A stretch of 64,000 nt of DNA from a virus (taxonomy: Duplodnaviria > Heunggongvirae > Uroviricota > Caudoviricetes), in the IMG/VR virus record IMGVR_UViG_3300021404_000007, positions 1-64,000 of that record, one strand, 5' to 3'. The notes beneath the pieces were generated by a model. That model made no database searches and was not told the origin of the DNA. It saw only the letters and a program-made list of their open reading frames with translations. The position numbers were made by a program, and so were the translations under genes. Numbering within the stretch: position 1 is the first letter of the stretch; each line of letters begins with the position of its first letter. Positions 132-49,271 of the stretch are shown here, in pieces.

Positions 132-605
132 CGTGGCGGCACGCTGGCCAGCAAATTTGCTGGCACCGGCACCGGCCAGCGGCACCGGCACGGCTGGCAG
201 TGTGTAGCGCGCTACCACATTGCGACGGGTAGGCGGCACAGCGCACAGCACCGGCACAGCATGGCCACCAGCGGCCAGCACAGCGCACAGCGTGCCAGCG
301 GCCAGCCTGGCAGCCGCTAGGCCACCAGCGGCCAGCACAGCAGGCCACCAGCGGCACTGCCAGCGCACGCCAGCGGCCAAAATGGGCCTGTTTTGTAGCA
401 ATGTTTGTACCAATTTTTGGCACCCGTTAAGCCGCCTACCTGGGAAAATGGCAAAAGCACCGCCCACCAGCGGCTAAACCGTCGCAATGTGGTAGCGCGC
501 TAGCGTATATTGGGTATTGCTAGCCCACCAGCGGCCAGCACCGGCCACCAGGCCGGTTAACCGGGCAGGCACCTACGCCAGCCCACACCAGTTAGGGGTT
601 ACACC

Positions 606-2019: not shown

Positions 2020-2111
2020 CCGGGACGCAGTCCGGGCCACATAGGAGAGGTATGAGCAGCGGGAAACGCCCGCGAGCACGGCGGCAAGGAGCCGCCGGCG
2101 ACTGGAAGGAG

Positions 2112-2581: not shown

Positions 2582-2696
2582 GACGTGAAAGGTCAAAAAC
2601 CGGGGTGGTACGAGCGGAAAGCCGCCGACCAGAGAACGCATGACCCCGACGGAAGCGTGGAGCTGGCAGAGCGCCGGTTCCCAAGGAAAAAAGGAG

Positions 2697-3158
2697 ATGG
2701 CAGTGAATGGAAAGAAGAAGTTGATCGTCGGAGGCGTGGTTGCCGGCGGTCTGATGATTGGAGCGGCTGGTCTGGTGCTCGGTGCAGGCATAGCGAAGGC
2801 CGACTTTCACCAGGACGTGCAGTTCATGGAGCTGCTGGACCAGCGCGGCATCGCGCTGACGAACAACAACACGTCATGGGGAACCGGCGTCTGCAACGGG
2901 CTGGACGAAGGGTTCACGCCCAAGCAGGAGGTTGACGCCGTGAGCACCAACTCGATGCTGACCACCAGCGATGCCATTTGGTTCGTGGTCAGCGCCGAGC
3001 ACGTGTACTGCTACCGACACTTCGGCCAGGACTACTTCACCAGCCAGCCGCTGATGCACGCGCCGAGGTTCGTGCCGCCGCCAGTGACGCAGGTGCCCAA
3101 CGACGGCATCGACCACGACACCGTGGTCAGCTACGACGGCAAGGGACACCGGAAATGA
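2697..3158 (+). CDS. DUF732-like membrane/secreted protein (N-terminal TM, conserved Cys pair)
   Basis: Preceded by GGCAGAGCGCCGG (2664-2676) and AAGGAGATGGCA. The protein resembles mycobacterial DUF732 proteins. Confidence 0.6.
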   Translation: MAVNGKKKLIVGGVVAGGLMIGAAGLVLGAGIAKADFHQDVQFMELLDQRGIALTNNNTSWGTGVCNGLDEGFTPKQEVDAVSTNSMLTTSDAIWFVVSAEHVYCYRHFGQDYFTSQPLMHAPRFVPPPVTQVPNDGIDHDTVVSYDGKGHRK

Positions 3159-3310: not shown

Positions 3311-3352
3311 TGCGCTGAGCCGTGGCAGGAAGCCGCGACCGAGAAGAAGGAG

Positions 3353-4024: not shown

Positions 4025-4366
4025 GTGGCAGATATCTATAGCGAGCCATACGGCGAGCCATACGTGAAAGGTCCGTCCATCGACAGCGAAGGCGGACAGG
4101 AATACCAGCGGGTTCACCCGGACGTGGCGAAGGCGCTGCGCGACCGGTTCGACGGCGGCTCAGCCTCGGTGTGGCACCCGGACAAACCGGGCGTGATCCT
4201 GAGCGACATCGAGAACTGGTGGGACGGACCACGCGAGGTGAAATACCTGGGCGACGGCGAGATGGAGTTCACCAACCCGTACAACGGCGACGTGGACAGG
4301 TTCAACCTGACCGGCTACTACGACCGCGAAGGCAACTTCACGGTGCGAGGCACAGAGCAGTACTGA
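4025..4366 (+). CDS. hypothetical protein (alternative GTG start at 4010)
   Basis: SD AAGGAG 6 nt before the GTG at 4025; the ORF frame is 4010..4366. Confidence 0.55.
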   Translation: MADIYSEPYGEPYVKGPSIDSEGGQEYQRVHPDVAKALRDRFDGGSASVWHPDKPGVILSDIENWWDGPREVKYLGDGEMEFTNPYNGDVDRFNLTGYYDREGNFTVRGTEQY

Positions 4367-4404
4367 CGGCAGAACGCCGCCAGAACGAGTGAGAGGAGAT
4401 TCCG

Positions 4405-4608: not shown

Positions 4609-4682
4609 CTGCAGGTTCGCCGACGGGTGGCACGTCGGCGTTCCTGTGGCCACGGCAGGAAGCCGTGACCGATGAGAAAGGG

Positions 4683-4853
4683 ATGGCAGATATGTGTAGT
4701 TGGGATTGCCCGAAATGCGGGGCGTGCGACCCGGATGTTGAGACGTTAACGACGCCGGGATTTACCGGAGCACCGATATACGTCATGAACTATTCGTGCT
4801 GCGGATATCAGGACGTGGACGCGAGCGCCGACAACATCGACGCGGCGCGATAA
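4683..4853 (+). CDS. small Cys-rich zinc-ribbon protein
   Basis: GGGATGGCAGATATG start motif; CPKCGAC...CCGY. Confidence 0.5.
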   Translation: MADMCSWDCPKCGACDPDVETLTTPGFTGAPIYVMNYSCCGYQDVDASADNIDAAR

Positions 4854-6359: not shown

Positions 6360-7052
6360 ATGCGTGCGATGACGAAGGGACTGCTCGACTACTGGCTCAA
6401 GCCCGGACTTCGGACCGGCGAGGTGCTGTACGACTTATCCTGGCGTGGCTCAGGTCCGATGAACGGACAGCCGAGCAAGCGGCTGGTAGTCGAGCAGATC
6501 TTCGACAGGATCGGGCCGACGCAGATTGTGGAGACGGGCACCAACCGTGGGCTCACCACGGCGTACCTCGCGGGCTTCCCGGTTCGGGTGCACACCATCG
6601 AGCTGGACGAGCGGCTGTACGGCTACTCCACCATGCGGCTGCGTCACCACCACAACGTCACGCTGCACCTGGGCCGAAGCGTGGAGGTGCTGCGCGAGCT
6701 GAAGACGGAACCGCGGGTGCTGTTCTACCTCGACGCGCACGGCGATGCCGGGAACATGTGGGACAGCGTGGAGGTGCCGCTGCACGAGGAGCTGGTGGAG
6801 ATCTTCAGCCGCTGGCCCTCGCCGGTGGTTCTGGTGGACGACTTTCAGGTCCCGGGCGACAGCTACAGCTATCTCGACCGTGGACCGGGTCGGCGGCTCA
6901 CCCCGGAGATTCTCGGGGAGTTCGAGGGTCTGTCGCGCTGGTATCCCTCGGCGCCCGCCTATACGGAGCCGGGGATGAATACCGGCTGGATGGTCATGGG
7001 AAGCGACCACTCTGCGGTCCTGGACGGGATACACGGGCTGCGACGCGGGTAA
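6360..7052 (+). CDS. class I SAM-dependent methyltransferase (O-methyltransferase-like; motif I VETGTNRG, post-II FYLDAHGD)
   Basis: 230-aa ORF; the motif spacing resembles the caffeoyl-CoA O-MT / Methyltransf_24 family. Confidence 0.6.
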   Translation: MRAMTKGLLDYWLKPGLRTGEVLYDLSWRGSGPMNGQPSKRLVVEQIFDRIGPTQIVETGTNRGLTTAYLAGFPVRVHTIELDERLYGYSTMRLRHHHNVTLHLGRSVEVLRELKTEPRVLFYLDAHGDAGNMWDSVEVPLHEELVEIFSRWPSPVVLVDDFQVPGDSYSYLDRGPGRRLTPEILGEFEGLSRWYPSAPAYTEPGMNTGWMVMGSDHSAVLDGIHGLRRG

Positions 7053-7060
7053 GAGCGTGG

Positions 7061-7095
7061 TGCGAATACGCACAGCGCGCTGTGGTATAATGGTG
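7061..7095 (+). promoter_or_regulatory. promoter-operator module: 12-bp palindrome ACAGCGCGCTGT fused to an extended -10 TGTGGTATAAT
   Basis: Perfect palindrome 7072-7083 and TGGTATAAT 7083-7091. Related modules are at 12859, 15898, 37690 and 48925. Confidence 0.55.
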
Positions 7096-7161
7096 GCAGG
7101 CCCAACCATGCCCTGAAGCAGGTTGGGCCGAAGCTATGGCAGAACGCCGTAACGGAAGGAG

Positions 7162-7377
7162 ATGGCAATGGGAGGCGTAGTAGCGCGCGACCCGAACGGC
7201 AACAAGCTGGCCGAGCAGGACTATATCGAGGGCGGCTTTGAGCCCACGATGCTGGCCCTGAAGGCGAAGCTGGACGAGGCCAACGGCTGCGACAACCGCT
7301 TGATGCAAGGCGATGGACACGGTGGACCGATCCTGACGGGAGTCGCCGAGGTCGTCGGCCGGTGGGCGTTCCAGTGA
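7162..7377 (+). CDS. hypothetical protein (MAMGGVVARD...)
   Basis: GGCAGAACGCCGT box plus GGAGATGGCAATG. Confidence 0.55.
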   Translation: MAMGGVVARDPNGNKLAEQDYIEGGFEPTMLALKAKLDEANGCDNRLMQGDGHGGPILTGVAEVVGRWAFQ

Positions 7378-7553
7378 CGGACTACGACTGGCACAGCTGC
7401 CCGAAGTGCGGTGGTATCTGGCGGCTCAGCCCGTCGGGACCGCACCAGGAGTGGAGCTATGCGGATTCGGTGCGCGACGCCATGCGCCACGAGCCACGGG
7501 TGTGCATCGACTGCACGCTCAAGGAGCAGGGCGGGCCGTACGGCCCGATGTAG
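7374..7553 (+). CDS. zinc-ribbon protein (CPKCGG...CIDC)
   Basis: GTGA overlap. Confidence 0.5.
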   Translation: MTDYDWHSCPKCGGIWRLSPSGPHQEWSYADSVRDAMRHEPRVCIDCTLKEQGGPYGPM

Positions 7554-7591
7554 ACCACCCGGCAGAGCGCCGGTGGGGAAAGGAGTACGCG

Positions 7592-8443
7592 ATGAAGAGC
7601 ATGTGGACTGGGATGCTGGGATTCGGAATCGTGCAGATTCCGGTGAAGCTGTTCACGGCCACCGAGAACCATGATGTGGGGTTCCACTGGCACCACGGGC
7701 CGAAGTGCCTGGGGAATGTGGGTCTGGTCAAAACCTGCAAGAAGTGCCTGAAGCCGGTGGACCCCGGCGACATCCTCTCGGGCACCGAGGTGGACGGCAA
7801 GGTGGTGTTCGTCAGCGACGAGGAGAAGGCCAGCCTGGAAGCCGCGCAATCCAAGCAGATCGAGATTCTGGAGTTCGTGGGCGCGGGCGAGATCGATCCC
7901 ATCGAGTTTGAGAACACCTACTACGTGGGCACGGCCGAGGGCGAGAAGGCGTATGCGCTGCTGGCGCAGAGCATGGGCGGACTGACGGCGCTGGCCCGCT
8001 TCACCATGCGCGGCAAGACGCGGCGGGCCGCGCTGCGCGCCGTGGTCCGCGACGACCGGCTGGTGCTGATCCTGCACACGCTGCGCTGGCCGGACGAGGT
8101 TCGGGTGCCGGAGGTGCCGGGTCTGGGCGGCGATTACAGTGCGGCCGAGCTGAGGATGGCCAAGAAGGTTGTGCAGTCGATGGTGGAGAAGTACGACCCG
8201 AACGCCCTGGTGGACACCTACCAGGAACGGCTGCAGGAGCTGGTTGCGGCCAAGGCCGAGGGCGCCGAGTTCGTGGTAGAGCCCGCAGTGGAGTTGGACG
8301 CCAGTGACGTCAAGGACGTGCTGGCGCAGCTTGAGGCGTCAATCAGGGCGCATCCGGCTGGCAGGAAGAAGGTGGCCGCGAAGGCACCGGCTAAGAAAGC
8401 ACCGGCGAAGGCGCCGGTCAAGAGAAGGAAGGCAGTGGCATGA
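7592..8443 (+). CDS. ku: Ku (non-homologous end-joining DNA-end-binding protein) with a Lys/Ala-rich C-terminal tail
   Basis: The N-terminus MKSMWTGMLGFGIVQIPVKLFTATE matches the bacterial Ku signature (MRAIWKG.ISFGLV.IPVK...ATE). There is an internal CxxC pair and a KAPAKKAPAKAPVKRRK tail. It is preceded by GGCAGAGCGCCGG plus SD. Confidence 0.85.
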   Translation: MKSMWTGMLGFGIVQIPVKLFTATENHDVGFHWHHGPKCLGNVGLVKTCKKCLKPVDPGDILSGTEVDGKVVFVSDEEKASLEAAQSKQIEILEFVGAGEIDPIEFENTYYVGTAEGEKAYALLAQSMGGLTALARFTMRGKTRRAALRAVVRDDRLVLILHTLRWPDEVRVPEVPGLGGDYSAAELRMAKKVVQSMVEKYDPNALVDTYQERLQELVAAKAEGAEFVVEPAVELDASDVKDVLAQLEASIRAHPAGRKKVAAKAPAKKAPAKAPVKRRKAVA

Positions 8444-9705: not shown

Positions 9706-9748
9706 CCGTGGACCCGGCAGAGCGCCGGTCCTAGAGAGGAGATGGCAA

Positions 9749-10057: not shown

Positions 10058-10251
10058 TGGGTGACACGTCCACAGTGGTGGCGAGAATCCCGAACTGCGA
10101 CGTTTGCCGCCAGAGCGGGAAGGAGACGCCCGCCTACGCCGATGCGAAGCTCAACATCGGTCCTTGGGCGTACGTCTGCCGTGCACATTTCGACGGGTAC
10201 GGCTGCAGCCTCGGCCTCGGCCGGGGCCAGGAGTTGAAGCTAAGGAAGTAG
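10057..10251 (+). CDS. zinc-binding protein (CDVC...C...C)
   Basis: TGATG overlap. Confidence 0.5.
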   Translation: MGDTSTVVARIPNCDVCRQSGKETPAYADAKLNIGPWAYVCRAHFDGYGCSLGLGRGQELKLRK

Positions 10252-10281
10252 CCGCGGCACGGTGCCGCGACAAGGAAAGGG

Positions 10282-10677: not shown

Positions 10678-10856
10678 TGCCCGGCGTGCTGTACGAGGTG
10701 CCGGGGGAACGTGAGTTGCTGCTGGCCAAGATCGCGCGCGAGGAGCACCGACAGGAAGGCCGGCGCGACTTCATCGTGGAGATCCAGCGGTTCATCGACA
10801 CCAAGGACCGCGAGATCGCGAACCTGCGGGCCAGGTTGGAGCAGTTGGATGGCTGA
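10677..10856 (+). CDS. hypothetical coiled-coil protein
   Basis: TGATG overlap. Confidence 0.45.
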   Translation: MPGVLYEVPGERELLLAKIAREEHRQEGRRDFIVEIQRFIDTKDREIANLRARLEQLDG

Positions 10857-11214
10857 GCATCGCAAGGCATTCGACCTCGCGGTGGCCAGCGTGATCGTGA
10901 TCAACACCGGGCTGCTGGCGTGGGCGTGGCTGGACCCGGCACGCGAGGAGATCATCGACCACATCGAAACGGTGTGCCTGGCGTTCTTCGTGGTCGAGCT
11001 GGCGCTGCGGATACGCGGCCACGGGCTGCGGTTCTTCCGCACCGGATGGGGCGTGGCCGACACGCTCATCATCGGGCTGTCGTTGCTGCCGCTGCTGGGC
11101 GTCGATGTCTCGCTGCTGCGCGTGGCGCGACTGGCGCGGGTGTTCCATCTTGGCCGACACATCACGCACCTACGCCTGCTGCGTCTGATTCCGATGACAA
11201 GGAGGTCTGTATGA
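10849..11214 (+). CDS. isolated voltage-sensor-domain-like membrane protein (ion_trans S1-S4; S4 = LRVARLARVFHLGRHITHLRLLRL)
   Basis: Four predicted TM segments. The S2-like AFFVVELALRIRG, S3-like GWGVADTLIIGLSLLPLLG and an Arg-every-third-residue S4 are present, with no pore domain. Confidence 0.5.
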   Translation: MAEHRKAFDLAVASVIVINTGLLAWAWLDPAREEIIDHIETVCLAFFVVELALRIRGHGLRFFRTGWGVADTLIIGLSLLPLLGVDVSLLRVARLARVFHLGRHITHLRLLRLIPMTRRSV

Positions 11215-11506: not shown

Positions 11507-11668
11507 ATGAAGTATCCAACGCCATGTGACGCCTGTGGAGCGCTGGTGGGTGAAGCGTGCCGCGAAGGCTGTCCGATCGCGCAGGTGCAAACGTCGCTCG
11601 ACGTAGACATGGGATCGGCAGAGCGCCGACCCAGTGAAGGGAGAAGTCACAATGGGATGGTTTGTTGA
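11507..11668 (+). CDS. small Cys-rich protein (53 aa)
   Basis: ATG after the AT-rich island; low-confidence start. Confidence 0.3.
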   Translation: MKYPTPCDACGALVGEACREGCPIAQVQTSLDVDMGSAERRPSEGRSHNGMVC

Positions 11669-12620: not shown

Positions 12621-12859
12621 CCGAACTGGACAGTGACGACGTGGCCAGCGCCTTCGAGAACGCTTTTGAGGCTATGGACCTGGGCCACCTGACGGCTATC
12701 GACGCTCTGACGCAGATCGCAACGGACATCGCCGGTGGCATCCCGGACGCGGCCGAGCGGCGCGCGTTCTTGGAGGCCTGCAACCTGCGTCGCGCCGAGG
12801 TGGACAAGGCCATGGACGCCATCTGCGCGGACATTATGGACTACACCCAAGGAACCTAA
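12617..12859 (+). CDS. hypothetical acidic protein
   Basis: ATGA overlap. Confidence 0.45.
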   Translation: MTELDSDDVASAFENAFEAMDLGHLTAIDALTQIATDIAGGIPDAAERRAFLEACNLRRAEVDKAMDAICADIMDYTQGT

Positions 12860-12880
12860 CAGCGCGCTGTGGTATAATTA
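12859..12880 (+). promoter_or_regulatory. palindrome ACAGCGCGCTGT plus TGGTATAAT promoter-operator module
   Basis: Same element as at 7072. Confidence 0.5.
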
Positions 12881-12932
12881 GGTAGCGGCGCAGCGCCGTG
12901 ACCAGGCAGAACGCCGGGAGAGGGAGATAGCA

Positions 12933-15894: not shown

Positions 15895-15930
15895 AACGTG
15901 GTAGCGCGCTGTTATATAATGGTAGTTGCG
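15895..15930 (+). promoter_or_regulatory. GTAGCGCGCT palindrome plus TGTTATATAAT extended -10
   Basis: Variant of the promoter-operator module. Confidence 0.45.
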
Positions 15931-15981
15931 GTAACGCACAGGCCACCGGCATGACGCCGCTGGAGAAAGGTGGAGCAGCAG

Positions 15982-16539
15982 ATGACTGCACCCGAGGATG
16001 GCAAGAAACCAGAACCGGCCCCGCATGAGTCGGGGTTGAGAGCAGCGAGGAAGGAGAGGGCTGCCGCCACCAAGGCGGCAGCCAAGAAGGCGCCACCGCA
16101 CAACGTGACGCACATCAACAGCGCCAAGAGCGCGGCCAAGACGCCCGCGAAGAAGGCGGCAGCCAAGAAGGCGCCGGCCAAGAAAGCCCCGGCCAAGACG
16201 GTTGCAGCCGTCCCCAAGGCGCCGGTGCTGCGCGACGCGGACCACCCGTGGTACAGCCGCACCAGCTATACGGCGCGGCCCGGCCAGAAGCTGTATGAGG
16301 CGACGGGTGAAAGCGGCCAAATTGCCGTGCGGTCGTTCCCCACGGTGATGACGCACGCGGTGAGCGTGGCGTATGTGAACTACCCAGGCGAGAGGGCTGA
16401 GTACATCCGCAAGGGTGTGATCTACAGCTTCTACCCCAACGCCGAGGCCGCGGAGAAGATCGCCAGCAAGCTCAACAAGGACCCGGACCACGCCAAGGTT
16501 GTCGAGGTGCGCGAGTACAGGGGACAAGGGGAGAAGTAA
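15982..16539 (+). CDS. protein with an N-terminal Lys/Ala-rich (AAKKAPAKKAPAK) histone-H1/HupB-like tail plus a C-terminal globular domain
   Basis: 186 aa with typical high-GC codon usage. Confidence 0.55.
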   Translation: MTAPEDGKKPEPAPHESGLRAARKERAAATKAAAKKAPPHNVTHINSAKSAAKTPAKKAAAKKAPAKKAPAKTVAAVPKAPVLRDADHPWYSRTSYTARPGQKLYEATGESGQIAVRSFPTVMTHAVSVAYVNYPGERAEYIRKGVIYSFYPNAEAAEKIASKLNKDPDHAKVVEVREYRGQGEK

Positions 16540-17748: not shown

Positions 17749-17954
17749 GCCGGGCGTGGCGCCATGTCCGCTGCCCGACCTGTGGTGCGGCACCCGGTAT
17801 GCGCTGCCAGACCGAGACTGGACGGCCTGCCAACCAGCCGCACCTGTCACGGCACGACTTGGCCATCGAATACCTGTGGTCGAACGAACCCTTTCCGGAG
17901 TCGCACCTACGCCCTATCAAGACGGTCTACCTACCAGGAGATGCACATGAGTGA
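17745..17954 (+). CDS. zinc-ribbon protein (CPTCG...C)
   Basis: ATGA overlap. Confidence 0.5.
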   Translation: MSRAWRHVRCPTCGAAPGMRCQTETGRPANQPHLSRHDLAIEYLWSNEPFPESHLRPIKTVYLPGDAHE

Positions 17955-19003: not shown

Positions 19004-19362
19004 GCGAGACAGTCCCGCACGACGGCCTGATGATGACGGAAACCAGCACCGACGACGAGGTGCGGGTCATCAGGATCATCGGTCTGATCAACGGCGGCAA
19101 GACGGCGTTCGACGGGCAGTACCTGGTGCAGTACGACCCCGGCCGCGGCGGTGTGGAGCCGGTGACCGGCAGGCCGATGCTGTGCCACATGGTCACCCAC
19201 CCGGACGTGGAGCAGGCCACCAAGTACTCCGTCACGGACGCGGTCAAGGTGTGGCAGGCGGTGGACCCGCGCCACCCGGTGCGAGCGGACGGCAAGCCCA
19301 ACCGCCCGCTGACCGCCTTCAGTGTGGAGATCATGCCGCCGGACGCGGAGCCGTTCCTGTGA
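18991..19362 (+). CDS. hypothetical protein
   Basis: SD GAGGAGAGG. Confidence 0.5.
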   Translation: MEMVGETVPHDGLMMTETSTDDEVRVIRIIGLINGGKTAFDGQYLVQYDPGRGGVEPVTGRPMLCHMVTHPDVEQATKYSVTDAVKVWQAVDPRHPVRADGKPNRPLTAFSVEIMPPDAEPFL

Positions 19363-20117
19363 TCGTGCTGCTGCACAGCGGTGGACTTGACTCGCATGTG
19401 TGTTTCTTGATGCACCCAGACTGGAAGCCGGTGTACGTGGCACACGGCAGCGAGAACGAGGAGGCCGAGCTCAAGGCGCTGACCGACCTGCAGGAGCTGG
19501 ACCCGCGCTTCCGGGTGGTGGTGCTCCGGGCGGTGACTGGCGCCGCCAGGCACGACGGCCACATCGCCCACCGGAACCTGCTGCTGCTGACCACCGCGCT
19601 GGCCGTGTTTCCCATGGCGGAAGCCGTGGCCTTTGGTGCCCTGCTGGGTGAGGGATCGGGCGACAAGAGCCGGGCCTTCTGCCGTGCCACCGAGCGGGTG
19701 TGGCGGCTGAGCGAGGGCCGCAATGTCAAACTGTTGCGCCCGCTACGGCACATGACCAAGGCGCGTGCGCTGCGGCACGGTATGGCACTGCCGGGTGGAC
19801 GTGGGCTGGCTGTAACGACAAGCTGCTACCACGGCACGCACTGTGGGCGGTGTCAAGCCTGCTTCCGGCTGGGCATTGCCCGCTACCTGTGCGGGCTGGA
19901 CGCGGTGCCGCCGAAGCTACCGGCCGAGACGCTGGGGATACAGGCCACGCTGGAAGCGACCCCGGTGCGGCGCTGGCCCGCGCTGGCGCTGGCGAACGTG
20001 GACGTGCTGCGGGCGTACGCCCTCGCACGGCTGCGGCGGAACCTGGCCAAGCCGTACATCGGCGCCGGGCCACAGAGCTTAGGTCGGCATGGTGCCGACC
20101 GGGAGAGGGAGAAATGA
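19359..20117 (+). CDS. queC: 7-cyano-7-deazaguanine synthase QueC
   Basis: N-terminal PP-loop LLHSGGLDS; C-terminal Zn site SCYHGTHCGRCQACFRLGIA; 252 aa. Confidence 0.75.
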   Translation: MIVLLHSGGLDSHVCFLMHPDWKPVYVAHGSENEEAELKALTDLQELDPRFRVVVLRAVTGAARHDGHIAHRNLLLLTTALAVFPMAEAVAFGALLGEGSGDKSRAFCRATERVWRLSEGRNVKLLRPLRHMTKARALRHGMALPGGRGLAVTTSCYHGTHCGRCQACFRLGIARYLCGLDAVPPKLPAETLGIQATLEATPVRRWPALALANVDVLRAYALARLRRNLAKPYIGAGPQSLGRHGADREREK

Positions 20118-21335: not shown

Positions 21336-21374
21336 TAGAGACCTGCGGCAGGGAGCCGCCGGGGAAGGGAAGAG

Positions 21375-29636: not shown

Positions 29637-30107
29637 CTATTTCCTTTCTAGAAAGCCCCAGCGCGCGCCGGAGCGGATTCGTGAGACTGTTGACTGGTTA
29701 ACACCGAAAATGTCGGCTAGCGCCTGTTGGCTCAGGGCCGACGATCTAATTACGAACGCATCGGCAGCGGTGAGTTTTGCGTGACCACGCTGCCGCTTGA
29801 CCATTTCTCGCATGTTCTGCCTCTGCGTCCCAGCATGTAGATGCGTGGGTTGTACGCAGATGGGCCGGTCACAGGAATGGAGCACCCGCTGCCCAGGAGG
29901 AATTGGTCCGTGGTAGATGCGGTAGGAAGCGTGGTGTGCCAACACGTTTTGGCGAGCTACCCAAAACTGCCCGTATCCACCCTCTCGATTTGTTGAGCCA
30001 GTCCAGTCCCAGCATCCTTCGCGATCGGATGGAGCAGGCGGTGGCTCTCCTGGCATAAACCAGGCGAACACTTCTGGCTCGCTCAGGCCAACTGGCCGTC
30101 GCGGCAT
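29637..30107 (-). CDS. HNH homing endonuclease with a C-terminal HTH
   Basis: GYGQFWV...HHASY...LHSCDRPICVQPTHL; upstream GGCAGAGCGCCGG box. Confidence 0.65.
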   Translation of the reverse strand: MPRRPVGLSEPEVFAWFMPGEPPPAPSDREGCWDWTGSTNREGGYGQFWVARQNVLAHHASYRIYHGPIPPGQRVLHSCDRPICVQPTHLHAGTQRQNMREMVKRQRGHAKLTAADAFVIRSSALSQQALADIFGVNQSTVSRIRSGARWGFLERK

Positions 30108-30203
30108 GAATAATCCTTTCGTCCCACTCCGGCGCTCTGCCGGATGCAGTTTATTGTACCGCGCTGTTAGAAAGGCTTATGTGACACCCGGAGGGTGTGT
30201 TGG

Positions 30204-31912: not shown

Positions 31913-31982
31913 TCACTATTATTGCTATAATAGTATTGTCTGGCAAAGCGCCGGGCATGAAAAAAGAGAGGATACTCTTGTA

Positions 31983-37421: not shown

Positions 37422-37510
37422 GAAGCCGCTGGCCGCTGCGTGCATCCAACCCGCTGCGCAGCGGCCAGCCCACCCCCGAAACGCCCCCACCGTCCACGAG
37501 GAGTCGAACA

Positions 37511-37684
37511 ATGACGTGCTGTGTATGCCTGAGTAATTACGCGGGGCCGTGCTCCATTTGCCCGGAGTGCCTGCTGACGATTTATCCCCACGGTGCGACC
37601 CACTGGCTGCGGCAGAGCTTCCGCAACCCGCTGGCCCCGGCGATGCCCGAATTGACACTGGCCAAGCCGCTGCTCCCGCTGTGA
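37511..37684 (+). CDS. Cys-rich zinc-finger protein (CCVC...CSICPEC)
   Basis: SD GAGGAG. Confidence 0.45.
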   Translation: MTCCVCLSNYAGPCSICPECLLTIYPHGATHWLRQSFRNPLAPAMPELTLAKPLLPL

Positions 37685-37720
37685 ATATGCTGTACCGCGC
37701 TACCGCATAGCGTGGTACAA
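37685..37720 (+). promoter_or_regulatory. nested palindromes TGTACC...GGTACA around an extended -10 TGGTACAAT
   Basis: Read directly from the sequence. Confidence 0.45.
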
Positions 37721-37770
37721 TGGTGCGGTAACCGCTACGGCAGTACGCCGAGCAAAGCTACACGCAGGAG

Positions 37771-43245: not shown

Positions 43246-43803
43246 CTAGGCCTCCATGTGCAGCTGCTGAATCAGCGAGATCTCGTACGGTTGCAGGTGC
43301 CCGCGGGTCGCCACTGTAGTCGTCATGGTGGCCGGCGACTTGACCCCGCGCAGCTTCATGCACGAGTGCTCGGCGGTGATTAGACAGGTGGCCCCGGACG
43401 GAGACAGCATGTGCATGAGGGAGTCCACCACCTGCTGCCCGATCCGCTCCTGCACCTGTAGCCGGGCGGCGTAGGCGTAGACCAGCCGGGTGAGCTTGGA
43501 CAGGCCGACGATGCGCTGGCCGGTGTGCGGGCGGTAGGCGACGGTGGCGCGGCCGAGGATGGGCAGCAGATGGTGCGCGCACGTGCTCTGTACGTCTATA
43601 CCCGCCTGGACGATGAGCCCCGGATCGCGCGGCGCCGGAAATGTCGTCTGAAGGTAATCCTCTGGATTCTCCTGGTAGCCCCAAAGCTGGTCCTTGAGCG
43701 ACTTGGCCACGCGAGCAGGAGTGTCGGCGGTGTGCTCGCCCTCGTCGACCCCCAGCGCGTCGAGAAGGAGCTTGACCGCGCTCTTGACGTCATCGGTTTC
43801 CAC
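43246..43803 (-). CDS. folE: GTP cyclohydrolase I (FolE)
   Basis: CAHHLLP active-site motif; T-fold size (185 aa). Confidence 0.7.
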   Translation of the reverse strand: METDDVKSAVKLLLDALGVDEGEHTADTPARVAKSLKDQLWGYQENPEDYLQTTFPAPRDPGLIVQAGIDVQSTCAHHLLPILGRATVAYRPHTGQRIVGLSKLTRLVYAYAARLQVQERIGQQVVDSLMHMLSPSGATCLITAEHSCMKLRGVKSPATMTTTVATRGHLQPYEISLIQQLHMEA

Positions 43804-44284
43804 AACGCATCTCCTGGTCCGCGTCGTTGTGCGTGAACAGTTGGTTGCGCTTGGTCACCGCCGCCAGCTCGGCGGCTCCCTTACTGGCGTACCGGCCGAG
43901 GTAGTAGGTGTGGTGGTTGTGCCGCACCACCGCCTCCCACGCTCCCCGGTGCCACCGCACGCCCCGGACCTGTGAGCGGCTGTTGCGCCGCTCCCCGGCC
44001 AGGTTCTCCATGTTCTGCTTGTGCGTCACCGGCCGCAGGTGGTCCGGGTTCACGCAGATCTTCGGGCAGTGCCGGTGGTGGTCCACCAGTCCGGTCGGCG
44101 GTGCGCCGTGCACGAAGGCCCAGGCGTTGCGGTGCGCCTGCCAGGTGCCGAACACCCGGTTGTCGAACTTCCCGTAGCCGCGGCCATCCACGCACGCCGT
44201 CCACAGCCAGCATCGGGTTCCCAGCACCGGGTTGATCGGACCCTGCTTGTTCACCTTCGCCCAGAACCGTTCGGCCGGTGTCAC
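43790..44284 (-). CDS. HNH homing endonuclease with an AP2 DNA-binding domain
   Basis: CWLWT..GYGKF...HHRHCPKICVNPDHL; GVRWHRGAWEAVV. Confidence 0.65.
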   Translation of the reverse strand: MTPAERFWAKVNKQGPINPVLGTRCWLWTACVDGRGYGKFDNRVFGTWQAHRNAWAFVHGAPPTGLVDHHRHCPKICVNPDHLRPVTHKQNMENLAGERRNSRSQVRGVRWHRGAWEAVVRHNHHTYYLGRYASKGAAELAAVTKRNQLFTHNDADQEMRCGNR

Positions 44285-44348
44285 GGCGCCCGCCCGTGTA
44301 ACGTCGCGCCGGTGATCCGTTGGCTGCGTTCCCTTTTCGACTCCACCA

Positions 44349-45056
44349 TCAGGTTCCTCGTTGGTCGCCGAACGCCAGTATTTGCAGCCGGTGCGAGCAG
44401 TTCACCCGTAGCCGGATCGATTCCTCGACAATGGCGCCGAATGACTCCTGGAGGTGAGCGGTGTCGGTACCTTCCGGCATCATCCAGACATTCCACCTTG
44501 GCCAGCCGTGCCGGTCGGCCAGCGACACGGCTTCTTTGACGTCCTGTGCGTTGCGCACCACGAACTTCAGGCAGGTGAACCGCAGCTTGATGTGCTGCGG
44601 CCACTCGGCCAGCTCGGGATTCTGGCCCGGCTTGTGCGTGGTGTTGGAGAGCTTGGGCGAGATGGAGTAGTGCCGGACGAACGTCTGCGTAGCCTCGCTC
44701 GGCGCCAGCGTGCCGTTGGTTTCCACCGAGATGAACTTGTCCTTGCCCGCCAGTGCGCGCAGCAGCACCTCCCACTCCGGATTCTTCTGGTGCATCAGCG
44801 GCTCGCCGCCGGTCAGGATGACCTCGTTGACCTCCGGGTCCACCAGCCGCACGATGCTGGCCGGGCTCATCCGGGTGATCTCCTCTTTCAGGTCGTAGAA
44901 GCGGGAGTCCCAGGTGTATGCCGAGTCGCAGACCCAGCCGCCCGCGTAGCCGCAGGAGAGGTTGCAGCCGCCGAAGCGGATGAACGCGCACAGGCGGCCG
45001 GCGCGCGGCCCCTCGCCCTGGATGCTGGTGAACGCCTCCACCACCGGCAGCGTCAT
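44349..45056 (-). CDS. queE: 7-carboxy-7-deazaguanine synthase QueE (radical SAM)
   Basis: FGGCNLSCGYAGGWVCD Cys cluster; 235 aa. Confidence 0.7.
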   Translation of the reverse strand: MTLPVVEAFTSIQGEGPRAGRLCAFIRFGGCNLSCGYAGGWVCDSAYTWDSRFYDLKEEITRMSPASIVRLVDPEVNEVILTGGEPLMHQKNPEWEVLLRALAGKDKFISVETNGTLAPSEATQTFVRHYSISPKLSNTTHKPGQNPELAEWPQHIKLRFTCLKFVVRNAQDVKEAVSLADRHGWPRWNVWMMPEGTDTAHLQESFGAIVEESIRLRVNCSHRLQILAFGDQRGT

Positions 45057-45511
45057 GTGCCCGCACCCGTCAGCACGACGTGCGGCAGCGGCCCGGAGTC
45101 GGATATCGACGGGAACCAGGTGGCCGTGTTGTCCGGCCCCTCCCGCAGCTCGACCGAGAGCAGCGGCGCCTTGGGCAGCGCGCGTCGGCTGTGCTTGGCG
45201 ATCTCGGCGGCGATGGCCTCGGTGGTGGGCTGCCCGATCAGCGCGTAGTACTTCAGCTTCCCGGCGCGCAGGTAGCCGATGAACTCGTCCTCGCGGTCGA
45301 TGATGAACCCGTGGTCGAACAGCGTGGCGATCATCGCGCGCAGCTTCTCTTTGACGGCGCCGAACTCCAGCGGGTCGCCGACATCCTGGGCGTAGGTCCA
45401 GGTGACGTGGAAGGTATGGCCGTGGATATTACGACATTTGGCGCCCGGCCCGGTGAGCCCGAGGATGCGATGCCCGGCGGCGAAGTGGGTACGTACCGAA
45501 ATGGTGCTCAT
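45053..45511 (-). CDS. queD: 6-carboxy-5,6,7,8-tetrahydropterin synthase QueD
   Basis: FAAGHRI...GKCRNIHGH motif; ATGA overlaps on both sides. Confidence 0.7.
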   Translation of the reverse strand: MSTISVRTHFAAGHRILGLTGPGAKCRNIHGHTFHVTWTYAQDVGDPLEFGAVKEKLRAMIATLFDHGFIIDREDEFIGYLRAGKLKYYALIGQPTTEAIAAEIAKHSRRALPKAPLLSVELREGPDNTATWFPSISDSGPLPHVVLTGAGT

Positions 45512-46413
45512 GAGTACACCTGCTCTCCCCGTGCCAGCTTGGCCACGGTCTCGATGTGCTGCGGATGGCCGTCCACCAGGTACAGGATCGGGCCGGTGAA
45601 ATCCTCTGCCCAGCCGCCGAGGCGACCCCACTTGGGCGACGGCACCGGGTTGTGCCGGTGGAAGTAGCGCAGCTGCTGCTCCTGCACGCTGGCCGAGAGC
45701 GCCGATAGCCGCACCATCATCAGCCGGTTGTGCGGTGCGCTGGTGGAGACTTCGCTCGGGTTCACCCCGTAGTGATCGCGCAGCAGGCACGCGATGTCCT
45801 GGCTGTAGGTGCCGCGCCCGTTCAGGTCGATGCTGTGCACCTTGCCCTGCCGCTGCGGGTCGCGCAGGTGCAGCCGCCCGTAGCGGTAGCTGGACCCCCA
45901 GCCGGAGGAGTCCACACTGAAGAACGGCAGCCGCAGGTGGCTCTTGTTGGCCAGCCCCCAGCCGTGGAACCGGACGTGCGGGTGGTTGTCCCGCGCGTAC
46001 TTGAAGCAGGCCACCATCCACCGGAACTTCTCCTGGATGCCCGCGTCGACCAGCGCCATGCCGCCCAGCCCGATGAAGTCCACGCCGCGCTCGACGTAGT
46101 AGTCCATGGTTTCCGGCCGCTCGCGCAGGTGGATGGTGGGTACACCGGGGATACCGGCGTCCACCATCTCGTTCCAGTTGTACTTGCTCGTCTCGGCGTT
46201 GCCGGTGATGTCGAGGCTGGCGATCCACGAGATGCGGTGGTGGTACATCTGCGCCCACGTCACCAGGTTCCTCGTCTCCACCGGCTTGCCCAGCGTGCGC
46301 AGGCTGACGGCGCCGGAGTCGGCGGCGATCCGGCACGGGGCCAGCCTGTCCAGGTCGTACTTGTGGTAGTACGCGAAGGACACCAGCAGGTTGCGCGGCG
46401 GTGCGATGGTCAC
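45508..46413 (-). CDS. dpdA: DpdA-like 7-deazaguanine DNA transglycosylase (TGT family)
   Basis: TGT-like fold, IAADSGAV and VDFIGLGGMA; position in the preQ0 operon; GTGA overlap. Confidence 0.55.
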   Translation of the reverse strand: MTIAPPRNLLVSFAYYHKYDLDRLAPCRIAADSGAVSLRTLGKPVETRNLVTWAQMYHHRISWIASLDITGNAETSKYNWNEMVDAGIPGVPTIHLRERPETMDYYVERGVDFIGLGGMALVDAGIQEKFRWMVACFKYARDNHPHVRFHGWGLANKSHLRLPFFSVDSSGWGSSYRYGRLHLRDPQRQGKVHSIDLNGRGTYSQDIACLLRDHYGVNPSEVSTSAPHNRLMMVRLSALSASVQEQQLRYFHRHNPVPSPKWGRLGGWAEDFTGPILYLVDGHPQHIETVAKLARGEQVYS

Positions 46414-46760
46414 GGTATCGCCCAGCTGATGTCGTCCGGCAGGTGCAGGTCGTCGGGCAGGTCCACGTCCTTGCGCCCGCTGATCACCACCGTGCCGTAG
46501 AAGTGCACCCAGCCGTTCACCGGCTCCGTGCGCCCGCTGGGGTTCAGTTCGTGCCACAGCTTGGTCGCGGTGTCGTTGCGCGGCGGCATTGCGCCACTCC
46601 AGATGTGGGTGTACCAGAACAGCACGTTGCCCACCTCGGTGCTGGCGCTGTCCAGGTCGGCGCCGATGATGCCCTGTAGCCGCTGCACGAAGCCGGTCAG
46701 GTCGAAGGGCTGCACCTCCAACGGACCGAGAATGGGGTGGATCACCAGCGCCAGCATCAT
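46410..46760 (-). CDS. hypothetical protein (116 aa) in the deazaguanine operon
   Basis: ATGA overlap with the GT gene. Confidence 0.5.
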   Translation of the reverse strand: MMLALVIHPILGPLEVQPFDLTGFVQRLQGIIGADLDSASTEVGNVLFWYTHIWSGAMPPRNDTATKLWHELNPSGRTEPVNGWVHFYGTVVISGRKDVDLPDDLHLPDDISWAIP

Positions 46761-47386
46761 CGCTTCAGCAGCTCGCGCATGACCTCGGGCTTGCCGTAGG
46801 CGAACTGGTACAACTTCCAGCGGCTGCGGGTGGTGGCCGCGGTGGGTTCCCTGTCGTTCTCGTGGTCGAACGACCAGGCGATGCCCTCCACCCGTTCCAC
46901 CGCCGCCAGTGTCTCGGCGGCTGCCTTGAACGCCTTGTCCTCGTAGCCCCACACCGCGCCGAAGCGCTCGTCGTAGCCGCCCAGCCACCAGAACAGATCG
47001 GACGCGCACACCAGGATGCCGCCGGCCGCGTCGTACTTGGTGAAGCACGGTTCCACCACGTACAGGTCGTCCAGGTCGTAGGCCACCGCCTCGGCTGGCA
47101 TCGCCCGGTAGCGGGTGAAGGGGTAGACCACGGCACCGCCGTTGGCCAGGTCCACCGCCCGCCGCAGCGCGGGCATCTCACACACCGTGTCGGCGTCCGC
47201 GATGATGACGATTTCCGCCGCCGCCGACTTCACCGCGTTGTTGCGCGCCTGGCTGCGGTGGAAGGGCTGCGTGGGTTCGCTGTCGCCGAGGTAGACCGGG
47301 TAGTCTGCCCAGAACTCCATGGCGCGGTAGAAGGCGGGCAGCCGGGTGGGCTGCGCCCGCCACGGGATGCAGACGGCAACCCGCAT
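46757..47386 (-). CDS. GT-A fold glycosyltransferase (GT2/GT7-like; DxD ADADT; WGYEDKAF)
   Basis: 209 aa; TGATG overlap with the ParB-like gene. Confidence 0.5.
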   Translation of the reverse strand: MRVAVCIPWRAQPTRLPAFYRAMEFWADYPVYLGDSEPTQPFHRSQARNNAVKSAAAEIVIIADADTVCEMPALRRAVDLANGGAVVYPFTRYRAMPAEAVAYDLDDLYVVEPCFTKYDAAGGILVCASDLFWWLGGYDERFGAVWGYEDKAFKAAAETLAAVERVEGIAWSFDHENDREPTAATTRSRWKLYQFAYGKPEVMRELLKR

Positions 47387-47955
47387 CAGATGCCCAGCAG
47401 GGCGTTCATCGCCGTGGTGTCGTTCTCGAACTCGTCCCGGTGCTTCTTCCACGCCGCCAGCGTCGGGGTGTCCACCACCAGCAGCAGGCGGCTCATGAAG
47501 TCCTCGTCGCCCAGCGGGCCACCCGCTTCGTTCTCCAACTCGTCCAGGTCCGGCGCACCGGCCAGCATCTCCTGCAGCATCTGCACGTAGTCCTCGTCGA
47601 AGCCGGTGCCTTCCAGGGTGTCGATCTTGAGCAACACCTCCAGCAGGGCTTCCATGTCCGGGCCGGGGCCAAGCTCGGCAATCCTGTTGTCCGCCAACAG
47701 GATCTTGCGTGCGCTCGTCTCGTCGGCATCCACCATGTCCACCCGTAGTGTCTTGAGTTTGAGGCCCTTGGCCGCCTGCCAGACGTGGTGCCCGGCCAGG
47801 ATGGTGCCGTCCTTGTTGACCACCACGCTGCGGTACTGGCCGTGCTGTTCCAGGCTCTCGGTAATGGCGTTCACGTCGCCACGGTTCGGGTTCTCCGGGT
47901 GTGGATGCAGCTTGCCGACAGGCATTTCCTTCTGGCCCATGAATGTGACTGTCAC
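47386..47955 (-). CDS. ParB-like nuclease-domain protein (possible DpdB analogue)
   Basis: HPHPENPNRGD ParB/Srx box. Confidence 0.55.
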   Translation of the reverse strand: MTVTFMGQKEMPVGKLHPHPENPNRGDVNAITESLEQHGQYRSVVVNKDGTILAGHHVWQAAKGLKLKTLRVDMVDADETSARKILLADNRIAELGPGPDMEALLEVLLKIDTLEGTGFDEDYVQMLQEMLAGAPDLDELENEAGGPLGDEDFMSRLLLVVDTPTLAAWKKHRDEFENDTTAMNALLGI

Positions 47956-48066: not shown

Positions 48067-48261
48067 ATGTCCGAACAGAGCCAGGCGTACCTCGACATCG
48101 TGGGTGGTGTCGAGCGCAGCTGGCCGCGTGCCTATGACGGCGTGATCGCGCTTGTTTGCCCGAACTGCGGTGCCGACCCGATGGAGCTGTGCACCAACCC
48201 GATCACCCGGTTGCCGCGCAAGTCACCCTGCATCCTTCGGGTGGCCCGCGGCTGTGGCTGA
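48067..48261 (+). CDS. possible small Cys-rich protein; overlaps the repressor 3' end
   Basis: 64-aa ORF; weak. Confidence 0.25.
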   Translation: MSEQSQAYLDIVGGVERSWPRAYDGVIALVCPNCGADPMELCTNPITRLPRKSPCILRVARGCG

Positions 48262-48714
48262 CCGCTTACCGTCGCCCTCCCATGGGCGCGGCTTGCGCAG
48301 TATCGCCTCCTTGTAGACCAGCACCACGCCCGGCACCGCATCGGCCACGCGCTGCGCGACCATGCGGTGCCAGCTGGCGCTGAACTTCCCGCCGTTGTCC
48401 AGCTTGCGCTTCGGGTCGCTGCGGTACTCCTCGTCGGTGCGGTAGACGGAGAGCGTGGCCTCGCCGCTGCTGCGGGTTTTCAGCAGGTCCTGGTACTTGG
48501 CCACCAGGACGGAGACAACCTGGGCGGTCTCCTCGTACACATCGTCCAGGCGCCCGGCGAAACGGTTGGGGATGTCCTCGCCGCCGTTCTCCATCCGGGA
48601 CAGGCGACGGCCATCGCACATCAGGTAACGCGCCATCCACCCCTGGGACAGACCGAGATACTCGCGCATGGATCGGAACTCGGCGCCGGTGATGGCGGGC
48701 AGCGTTTCGGTCAT
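48223..48714 (-). CDS. XRE-family HTH repressor (candidate immunity repressor)
   Basis: N-terminal TGAEFRSMREYLGLSQGWMARYL helix-turn-helix; divergent from the cro-like gene. Confidence 0.6.
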   Translation of the reverse strand: MTETLPAITGAEFRSMREYLGLSQGWMARYLMCDGRRLSRMENGGEDIPNRFAGRLDDVYEETAQVVSVLVAKYQDLLKTRSSGEATLSVYRTDEEYRSDPKRKLDNGGKFSASWHRMVAQRVADAVPGVVLVYKEAILRKPRPWEGDGKRSATAAGHPKDAG

Positions 48715-48869
48715 GGCGTCACGGTAGCTTTCGCGCGGTGAGACACCATCTTGCCGTCCTTGCGGACCCGGACCCAGGCCCCGCACATCGGGCACTCCAT
48801 GGTCCAGGCACCGTGCGGCGCCCTCAGTGTAAGTTGTTGCGGTCCAGGACAAATCGGTCGTTGCGGCAT
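48711..48869 (-). CDS. zinc-ribbon protein (CPMCG), first gene of the leftward transcript
   Basis: Upstream GGCAGAGCGCCGG box (reverse complement at 48889-48901). Confidence 0.45.
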   Translation of the reverse strand: MPQRPICPGPQQLTLRAPHGAWTMECPMCGAWVRVRKDGKMVSHRAKATVTP

Positions 48870-48914
48870 GTCAAAACCCCTTCTCAGCCCCGGCGCTCTG
48901 CCGGGCCCAACCCT

Positions 48915-48950
48915 GAATATACCACAGCGCGGTGTGGTATAATAACGGTA
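48915..48950. promoter_or_regulatory. switch operator: inverted repeat TATACCACA-N6-TGTGGTATA carrying face-to-face -10 boxes (TGTGGTATAAT on + and TGTGGTATATT on -)
   Basis: Read directly from the sequence. Confidence 0.55.
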
Positions 48951-48977
48951 TGGCGCAAACGGGTGTGGTGTCGGCAG

Positions 48978-49226: not shown

Positions 49227-49271
49227 ACCTACGCGCGGCAGAGCGCCGCGCGGGGAGGAAGGGTTGGTGAG

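Follow-up and report, generated by a model that had tools for sequence, protein, structure and literature searches.

The window analysed here, the whole 64,000-nucleotide stretch at positions 1 to 64,000 of IMG/VR record IMGVR_UViG_3300021404_000007 (Caudoviricetes; 65% G+C), carries upstream of position 7168 a short promoter-like module in which a perfect 12-bp palindrome is fused to an extended -10 sequence. The module is followed by a leader with two hairpins and a ribosome-binding site (RBS), and it recurs elsewhere in the window. At this locus the parts are arranged as follows.

7072-7083: perfect 12-bp palindrome ACAGCGCGCTGT, a putative operator, centred 8 bp upstream of the -10 hexamer
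7081-7091, plus strand: extended -10 sequence TGTGGTATAAT with no recognisable -35; hexamer at 7086-7091
7099-7129, plus strand: leader hairpin 1, with a 9+3 bp stem, at the 5' end of the predicted transcript
7135-7151, plus strand: leader hairpin 2, core GGCAGAACGCC, the conserved start-associated hairpin
7158-7167, plus strand: GGAGATGGCA, RBS and spacer, directly before ATG 7168

A preliminary description of the sequence had reported the palindrome joined to TGnTATAAT at 7072-7091 and 12859-12878, and the 20-mer ACAGCGCGCTGTGGTATAAT is indeed exact at both positions, with unrelated flanks. The variants that it placed near 15898-15920, in the switch region and in the left-end repeats at 204, 481 (inverted), 1174 and 1233 were likewise recovered, as GTAGCGCGCTGT + TATAAT at 15901-15920, as ACAGCGCGGTGTGGTATAAT at 48924-48943 and as a GTAGCGCGCTAC core that reads GTAGCGCACTAC in the 1174 copy. 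Absent from it were a minus-strand copy at 30148-30167, the bidirectional character of the switch copy and the promoter nature of the 481 repeat. Outside the first locus and the switch region, the copies are these.

12859-12878, plus strand: second exact copy of ACAGCGCGCTGTGGTATAAT, overlapping the stop codon of the upstream gene; hairpins then at 12885-12899 and 12902-12918
15901-15920, plus strand: promoter copy GTAGCGCGCTGTTATATAAT (GTAGCGCGCTGT + TATAAT), its left half-site of the left-end repeat type
493-511, plus strand: promoter copy TAGCGCGCTAgcgTATATT, with TATATT at 506-511, inside the inverted 25-bp left-end repeat (481) and upstream of the open reading frame (ORF) at 606-1052
30148-30167, minus strand: degenerate promoter copy ACAGCGCGGTACAATAAACT, upstream of the HNH endonuclease gene 29637-30107, with a conserved hairpin directly after it
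37690-37721, plus strand: variant site; its imperfect inverted repeat of 29 bp, TGTACC-N17-GGTACA, contains GTACCGCGCTAC as well as the extended -10 sequence TGGTACAAT
204-215: promoter-less palindrome GTAGCGCGCTAC in a 25-33-bp left-end repeat
1174-1185: promoter-less copy GTAGCGCACTAC in a left-end repeat
1233-1244: promoter-less copy GTAGCGCGCTAC in a left-end repeat

A search of the window for the palindrome, as the preliminary description had proposed, found no enrichment of the bare 12-mer (ACAGCGCGCTGT with 2 mismatches allowed: 9 matches versus 6.1 expected). By contrast, a composite rule that requires the core AGCGCGCT (at most 1 mismatch), exactly 4 nt and then TANNNT returned seven sites, against 0.29 ± 0.56 expected and a maximum of 3 in 300 dinucleotide-preserving shuffles. 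These sites lie at 494, 7074, 12861, 15903 and 48926 on the plus strand and at 48933 and 30165 on the minus strand. All copies of the module are intergenic and co-oriented with the downstream gene. In the left-end repeats, three of the four copies are without a -10, and relative to the promoter type the palindrome GTAGCGCGCTAC is altered symmetrically, at positions 5 and 6.

The left end as a whole (1-1500) is repeat-dense and T-poor on the top strand (AT skew 0.32), with many copies of GGCCACCAGCGGCCAGCAC and CACCGGCCAGCG in both orientations; enclosed by the repeats are an AT-rich patch (about 375-450) and a 148-aa ORF rich in Ala, Lys and Pro (606-1052). The left end might serve as an origin, for packaging or as an array of protein-binding sites.

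The -10 hexamers of the module, all of the form TAnnnT, read TATAAT four times, TATATT twice and TAAACT/TACAAT once, and the -10 parts read TGTGGTATAATGG, TGTTATATAATGG and CGTGGTACAATGG. A TGn extension is present as TGTGGTATAAT or TGTGGTATATT at 7081, 12868, 48933 and 48926 (minus strand) and as TGGTACAAT at 37713; the 493 and 15901 copies have none. No -35 hexamer is recognisable 16-18 bp upstream of these sites, the only candidates being weak TGCGAA- or GGAAC-like strings at 18-19 bp. A scan with the two-hexamer sigma-70 consensus called no site because no -35 is present; such a scan is uninformative for -35-less promoters, and its result is not negative evidence. Extended -10 promoters can function without a -35, and a longer -10 consensus, tgngnTAyaaTgg, has reportedly been given by Patek and Nesvera. 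The SigA consensus of Corynebacterium glutamicum combines a -35 ttgnca with a -10 TAnnnT (PMC5483222). The sequences support at least seven sites as strong -35-less extended -10 promoter-like elements of the form TGnGnTAYAATgg, that is, of the SigA type as in Mycobacteriales-like hosts, from which the phage would drive its early genes.

Judged from its sequence, the source is an uncultured phage of a Mycobacteriales-like host, because no close phage record was found, its minor tail protein is about 32% identical to Mycobacterium and Gordonia phage proteins, and it encodes a DUF732 protein, of a family typical of mycobacteria. A near-identity search with 6-9 kb of the window against 50,697 phage records gave no match, and a distant DNA search matched only RecE/RecT, at 66-70%, in Mycobacterium and Gordonia phages; neither search of phage records yielded an isolate close enough for comparing regulation. 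The relatives compared here are metagenomic and were found by protein searches. Four of them (L007, L015, L016 and L020) are near-identical to the window and have the same promoter sites, with the 15901-15920 copy identical in L020, a 92% relative. Three others (L014, L019 and L021) share 48-63% protein identity with the window, and one relative lies on a 127.9-kb contig. IMG/VR protein searches with the tail protein and with the XRE protein considered below returned no relatives; a search of IMG/VR and JGI metagenomes with the Ku protein found only 35-41% relatives, and in the one of these that was checked (L008) the motif is absent. A scan of genome contigs yielded a single 34% homolog, in a Demequina metagenome-assembled genome, without a switch region.

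L014, L019 and L021 each have three copies of (C)CAGCGCGCTG(G) + TAnnnT, all intergenic and co-oriented, and the composite motif reaches 10 sites in the relatives where 0.41 are expected. Their hexamers vary (TAGGCT, TAAGCT, TACAAT, TACGCT, TAAACT, TATACT) and the palindrome is invariant. The gap between core and hexamer is constant in each genome, at 4 nt in the window and 2 nt in these three relatives. The outermost pair of the 12-mer changes symmetrically, from A..T in the window (ACAGCGCGCTGT) to C..G in the relatives (CCAGCGCGCTGG), and mirror symmetry at ±1 to 5 around the centre is retained in 81-100% of 16 sites from four genomes. Searching IMG/VR for the exact motif GCGCGCTGTGGTATAAT gave four matches, on unrelated contigs of 38-63% GC, which we attribute to chance.

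These patterns bear on whether the palindrome might be part of the promoter itself, either as a GC-rich spacer or upstream element or as the relic of an ancestral bidirectional promoter, with no separate regulator, which we hold to be rather unlikely. A distance between palindrome and -10 that is fixed in each genome, with no -35, is what a promoter part would show; the switch copy, with its two mirrored -10 elements, and the opposite-side TANNNT at 2 nt from L014 site 17108 and window site 12859 would suit a bidirectional origin. Such a part does not readily account for a dyad-hexamer distance that shifts by 2 bp between genomes around the same dyad sequence, a shift that makes direct contact with RNA polymerase unlikely since it would not easily be tolerated. 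Nor does it explain why the promoter-distal half, needless in a one-directional promoter, is kept as an exact mirror, why three left-end copies are without a -10, or why the dyad is better conserved than the hexamer. The mirror-conserved distal half, the 2-bp spacing shift and the promoter-less copies favour reading the palindrome as a putative site for a dimeric DNA-binding protein rather than as an RNA-polymerase element. In the promoter-operator reading of the preliminary description, the SigA-type extended -10 sites, intergenic and co-oriented, are borne out and the dyad behaves as a protein site; the operator function is predicted, and repression is suggested by the position of the site.

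Across the window, 6-bp palindromes are strongly avoided (GCCGGC, 31 versus 109 expected; CCCGGG, 9 versus 56; ACCGGT, 7 versus 51; CGATCG, 5 versus 33), a pattern consistent with restriction avoidance, and against it the conserved 12-bp palindrome stands out all the more. We rejected 7-deazaguanine modification or restriction sites as the cause of the palindrome, as they fail to explain its fixed link to the -10 and GCGCGC is not among the strongly avoided hexamers.

We consider it somewhat probable that the sites are -35-less SigA-type promoters, each with a predicted operator (CAGCG-CGCTG) for a single phage helix-turn-helix (HTH) regulator, the likeliest candidate being an XRE protein encoded at 48223-48714. 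In the mechanism that we propose, each promoter is joined, at a constant spacing, to a dyad of 10-12 bp that occupies roughly -26 to -15 when the hexamer is placed at -12 to -7, so that a bound dimer would cover the spacer and the extended -10 and exclude RNA polymerase. Positions -26 to -15 are the usual place for repression by occlusion. The proposed control is most compact in the switch region, where the features are as follows.

48916-48943: 28-bp near-palindrome AATATACCACAGCGCGGTGTGGTATAAT, comprising two back-to-back extended -10 sequences (hexamers 48921..48916 leftward and 48938-48943 rightward) and one central dyad
48711-48866, minus strand: 51-aa Cys-rich ORF (phrog_6601), which opens the leftward operon ahead of the XRE gene
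48223-48714, minus strand: XRE/HTH_31 protein of 163 aa, the candidate regulator, with a predicted Aca2/YdiL fold
48978-49226, plus strand: 82-aa HTH protein (phrog_686), the rival candidate regulator, first gene of the rightward operon

The two -10 elements of the switch are 16 bp apart with the dyad exactly in the middle, and the minus-strand mirror reads ACACCGCGCTGTGGTATATT; the dyad (48924-48935) abuts the leftward -10 (48921..48916) of the XRE-encoding operon. Because this single dyad lies exactly between back-to-back -10 elements, one dimer would shut both the regulator's own operon, by negative autoregulation, and the divergent operon, and the same regulator would act on the other promoter copies spread over 50 kb. 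The layout is identical in L007 and the same in three further relatives, L005, L006 and L017 (XRE protein identity to the window of 61%, 62% and 44%), in which back-to-back -10 elements enclose an AGC-NN-GCT dyad. The 51-aa Cys-rich ORF is absent from these three. Their switch dyad is AGCTAGCT in L005 and L006 and AGCGCGCT with an overlapping CGCTAGCT in L017. On the rightward side, the predicted start of the switch promoter falls at about ATG 48950, 6 nt past TATAAT, and a possible leaderless 11-codon ORF, MAQTGVVSAGG (48950-48985), overlaps the GTG start of the 82-aa HTH gene.

An AlphaFold2 model of the XRE protein (predicted local distance difference test score, pLDDT, 81.4) gave full-length Foldseek matches to SO3848 (2ox6, E 1e-4), Aca2 and YdiL (1s4k), with template-modelling (TM) scores of 0.61-0.80, target-normalised, against the Aca2 structures 7ezy, 7vjq, 7vjo and 7b5j. 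For 7ezy, 7vjq and 7b5j, Foldseek E values were 0.002-0.01 and TM scores 0.70-0.80 over about 130 columns; plain HTH domains match the model over only about 50 residues. A profile of the XRE family aligned to PDB Aca2 with E 0.048, placing the DNA-binding R30 of Aca2 opposite an invariant arginine. The modelled fold, an N-terminal HTH with a C-terminal dimerisation domain of the Aca2 type, suggests that the XRE protein is Aca2/YdiL-like, with a sequence below the PF08965 threshold. Aca2 is a dimeric autorepressor whose target is an inverted repeat lying across the strong promoter of the operon that encodes it (PMC6765145); it also binds hairpins in 5' untranslated regions (UTRs) (PMC6765145; PMC13551039). 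Predicted Aca regulons have motif pairs ahead of several adjacent operons, with RNA motifs also placed between the genes of an operon (PMC13551039). Because the arrangement at the switch fits this autorepressor pattern we rank the XRE protein first, and infer, more weakly than for the operator function, that it is the most likely regulator of the dyad.

It is unlikely, in our judgement, that the dyad serves instead as operator for another protein, namely the 82-aa HTH protein, a regulator whose gene lies beyond the window or a transcription factor of the host that the phage exploits. The 82-aa protein is the most concrete of these, with its phrog_686 HTH match and a putative recognition helix, RLYQIKRG, that is nearly invariant among relatives. 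Since putative recognition helices are conserved in both proteins, co-variation cannot separate the two candidates, and the dyad does not simply co-vary with XRE divergence; a single-sequence AlphaFold2 model of the 82-aa protein was unreliable (predicted TM score 0.43). The window is also only part of a genome of roughly 128 kb, which leaves room for regulators outside it. On the other side, Aca2-type autoregulators use inverted repeats over their own promoter, as found at the XRE gene, and among the approximately 50 window proteins scanned no further HTH regulator was found. As for a host factor, no actinobacterial transcription-factor motif was recognised in the dyad, which fits none of those considered, namely the LexA box, the PafBC/RecA-independent promoter, CIRCE, ClgR, and the SigH and SigE promoters.

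The preliminary description had also noted the hairpin at 7099-7129, which folds as claimed, with a 9+3 bp stem. The whole leader of the 7072 promoter folds at -29.7 kcal/mol (z = -2.99; none of 200 shuffles as good), and the differences between the window and L015 or L016 in this hairpin lie only outside paired bases. Treating it as a one-off did not hold up: leaders here generally have two hairpins, the second of which is conserved and recurs about 19 times. The first is variable: in the window and its relatives alike, each promoter copy is followed, at most a few bases from the predicted start, by a G+C-rich hairpin, and these hairpins are unrelated in sequence. 5'-terminal stem-loops are known to protect transcripts, and the variable 5'-terminal hairpin most likely protects the 5' end of the transcript from degradation.

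The second hairpin, CGGC-ARRRN-GCCG, lies 3-16 nt upstream of the RBS, mostly away from promoters. Its sequence GGCAGARCGCC has 10 exact copies, each of them on the sense strand with a start codon 28-37 nt further on, and 23 matches with 1 mismatch where 8.2 are expected. After the hairpin comes an RBS, often as the exact string GGAGATGGCA, which occurs in seven exact plus-strand copies directly before starts (at 2108, 2693, 3349, 7158, 8451, 9738 and 37767) and in 25 matches with 1 mismatch, against 5.5 expected; it qualifies as a start-associated sequence as that term is applied to Cluster K mycobacteriophages. We compared 31 hairpin instances from five genomes, chosen by core motif and closeness to the RBS and not by pairing of the lower stem. 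The upper stem CGGC/GCCG is nearly invariant in them; the lower stem is variable, and its changes are compensatory: pairing holds for 83% of cells versus 68% in shuffles, and double-sided changes number 45 where 19.7 are expected, with none of 500 shuffles as high. A covariance model recovered 19 copies in the window and two further candidates, all on the sense strand and mostly at 2-22 kb; searching the window against Rfam gave no match at the gathering score and, at E ≤ 5, only chance-level unrelated ones. Besides 7135-7151, the conserved start-associated hairpins are as follows.

2077-2099, plus strand: hairpin
2659-2681, plus strand: hairpin
3318-3340, plus strand: hairpin with loop variant GGCAGGAAGCC
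4362-4384, plus strand: hairpin
4648-4670, plus strand: hairpin
7555-7577, plus strand: hairpin upstream of the Ku-like gene
9710-9732, plus strand: hairpin
10250-10272, plus strand: hairpin
11611-11633, plus strand: hairpin
12899-12921, plus strand: hairpin in the leader of the 12859 promoter
15942-15964, plus strand: hairpin in the leader of the 15901 promoter
20080-20102, plus strand: hairpin
21341-21363, plus strand: hairpin
30125-30147, minus strand: hairpin in the HNH gene leader
31936-31958, plus strand: hairpin (GGCAAAGCGCC)
37733-37755, plus strand: hairpin in the leader of the 37690 variant promoter
48886-48908, minus strand: hairpin (GGCAGAGCGCC) in the XRE operon leader
49231-49253, plus strand: hairpin in the rightward operon, lying between genes; 8-bp stem and highest model score (28.5 bits)

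By analogy with Aca2, the XRE protein might also bind the CGGC-ARRRN-GCCG leader hairpin and so control translation. In its full form, this would be a two-layer regulon of a roughly 128-kb actinophage, in which a single HTH protein of the Aca2 fold acts on at least seven SigA promoters through the CAGCGCGCTG dyad and on about 20 cistrons through the hairpin, a possibility that we find distinctly doubtful. Mimicry between DNA and RNA sites was considered and rejected, since CAGCGC/GCGCTG is reused in only 3 of 16 promoter-proximal hairpins, all of them in relatives.

Several observations weigh against the operator reading and its candidate regulator. The constant spacing between dyad and -10 in each genome is equally expected of a promoter element, and a single operator for both divergent promoters would allow no differential switch. 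At the 37690 site, the TGTACC...GGTACA repeat and TGGTACAAT that the preliminary description listed as a variant are present, but the geometry is unlike that of the other copies, the palindrome GTACCGCGCTAC being centred about 19 bp rather than 8 bp from the hexamer. The dyad does not simply track XRE divergence, as the 61-62% relatives have AGCTAGCT and the 44% relative retains AGCGCGCT. With regard to Aca2, the window XRE protein has no PF08965 score at all and matches only HTH_31, its homologs P0009 and P0006 fall below the PF08965 cut-off (16.1 and 15.0 versus 23.8 bits), and the compact 12-bp dyad (NCAG-N4-CTGN) is shorter than inverted repeat IR1 of Aca2 (TTCG-N6-CGAA). The leader hairpin and the DNA dyad, finally, have no convincing sequence in common.

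The module also coincides with differences in gene content. L014, L019 and L021 have just one module, flanked by the homologs of the genes at 6369-7052 and 15970-16539; in the window these genes are 8.8 kb apart, with modules at 7072, 12859 and 15901. The leader in L014 looks, by eye, chimeric, its hairpin 1 resembling the 7099 hairpin and its second half the 15901 leader. Being repeated, the module would act as a recombination point, and from the sequences it marks cassette boundaries, as expected from repeat recombination. A stronger version, in which the module is a recombination or mobility feature, a portable promoter cassette travelling with genes, and the palindrome has no regulatory role, strikes us as very improbable. 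It would account for the one copy in these three relatives versus three in the window, bounding 8.8 kb of extra genes, for the module copy owned by a homing-type HNH gene and for two copies that are identical over exactly 20 bp between unrelated flanks. Yet the palindrome is invariant across genomes that are only about 50% identical in protein, which argues for selection on its sequence, and any regulatory site present in several copies would be expected to recombine as a side effect.

In the same part of the genome, the promoter region of L015 is that of the window, and the 227-aa protein of 6369-7052 is identical in both. At L015 1633-2217, a 194-aa NUMOD4/HNH gene separates the 69-aa gene from Ku; the window has no more than a 63-aa ORF in that place (7362-7553). 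Homing endonucleases seem to move actively among these phages.

That phage promoters can have repeated operators is well established. In the immI region of P22, the operator of Arc, a ribbon-helix-helix protein, lies between the divergent promoters Pant and Pmnt and, as proposed for the switch dyad, is a single operator that shuts overlapping divergent promoters, but it has no genome-wide site copies. Mycobacteriophage L5 (Cluster A) has, as predicted for the window, many copies of a short site for one regulator, the repressor gp71, throughout the genome, the early lytic promoter included. Its operators or 'stoperators' are asymmetric, orientation-dependent 13-mers, mostly within transcribed regions, that block elongation, whereas the sites described here are palindromic and fused to a -10. 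The Streptomyces phage phiC31 is also a high-GC actinophage, with a family of conserved early promoters associated, much as predicted here, with inverted-repeat repressor sites; its early promoters are not SigA-like, and the 17-bp inverted repeats bound by its repressor c hold no fixed position relative to the -10. Cluster K start-associated sequences and extended start-associated sequences consist of a conserved RBS-containing motif before starts with an inverted-repeat element upstream, in sense orientation. The 13-bp Cluster K sequence, GGGATAGGAGCCC, was not matched here; GGAGATGGCA has a similar position and another sequence, and the hairpin differs in its CGGC-loop-GCCG form, in its compensatory changes and in belonging to a different phage group.

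Cluster O mycobacteriophages, which also encode Ku, have a 17-bp repeat, TGTTCGGNNNCCGAACA, in more than 30 dyads per genome, many inside genes, as well as 8-9 SigA-like promoters per genome, including a divergent pair (PMC4351075). The window has in common with them the Ku gene, many short dyads and strongly predicted SigA promoters, but in Cluster O dyads and promoters are separate features (PMC4351075) and here they are fused. The closest parallel is the acrIF8-aca2 operon of Pectobacterium phage ZF40, whose Aca2 is a dimeric HTH protein of the fold predicted for the XRE protein, with its own strong housekeeping promoter under an inverted repeat (PMC6765145; PMC13551039). Aca2 systems also have 5' UTR hairpins ahead of the RBS and predicted DNA and RNA motifs at several operons and, for RNA, between genes (PMC13551039). 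They differ in that the dyad here is a contiguous 10-12-bp GC palindrome rather than TTCG-N6-CGAA, that the sites extend over at least 50 kb and at least seven promoters of a large actinophage rather than a single anti-defence locus, and that no anti-CRISPR gene was identified, the PF08965 match is below threshold and binding is predicted. What is new here is the combination of a -35-less promoter and 12-bp dyad, an Aca2-fold candidate regulator and a covarying pre-RBS hairpin, common to a set of large actinophages not described before.

If the operator reading is correct, an extended -10 with a 12-bp operator would provide a compact, portable promoter-operator cassette for Mycobacteriales hosts, together with an easily testable candidate regulator. 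One protein would then control many operons, and an Aca2-type protein dozens of genes instead of one anti-defence operon. Were the two-layer regulon real, dual DNA and RNA recognition by Aca2 would extend beyond anti-CRISPR loci to a whole early gene set. With its compensatory changes in five genomes, the pre-RBS hairpin adds a new candidate to the cis-regulatory RNAs of actinophages and may illuminate the unexplained 'start-associated sequences' of Cluster K. The module also marks points of gene-cassette gain and loss, a concrete example of how mosaic phage genomes are built.

Other genes recognised in the window are as follows.

2697-3158: 153-aa protein with a DUF732 match
7592-8443: Ku-like protein
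10849-11214: 121-aa protein with an Ion_trans (ion-transport family) match, E 7.5e-16
33.6-35.8 kb: RecE and RecT
43246-47940, minus strand: 7-deazaguanine/queuosine-type DNA-modification cluster
right end of the window: minor tail genes

The modification cluster encodes GTP cyclohydrolase I and QueE-like radical SAM, DpdA/TGT-like transglycosylase, glycosyltransferase-like and ParB-like proteins, and is interrupted by an HNH endonuclease gene; the HNH genes of the window lie at 29637-30107 and 43790-44284. The product of 19359-20117 (plus strand) is 60% identical to an L019 protein that Pfam calls QueC. Between 23155 and 26505, a 3.3-kb segment of 72% G+C with strong GC skew, a gene caller based on codon usage accepted no ORF; the segment may hold an unusual gene (e.g. 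Gly-rich) or coding of different composition. Short Cys-rich, zinc-ribbon-like ORFs of 30-60 codons, skipped by the gene caller, lie inside many 'intergenic' gaps, including 4693-4853, 11507-11600, 17749-17946, 37510-37684 and 48711-48866.

The near-palindrome TTCCACGTTGAA has four matches in the window where 0.4 are expected, three of them at 3608 (minus strand), 5829 and 11451. Its copies are in AT-rich intergenic sequence with A-rich leaders (AAAACCGGAAAA), in gaps without a AGCGCGCT promoter, and may represent a second class of regulatory site. GTTTGCCATTAG occurs in three exact copies (0.01 expected) at 31895, 33432 and 35826 (minus strand), flanking the RecE/RecT block, which is of lower GC; two of the three are inside a longer repeat, CGACCATTKGTTTGCCATTAG, and adjoin the -10-like sequences TATAAT and TAGAGT. 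The RecE/RecT block seems to have been acquired separately, as a module with control sites of its own.

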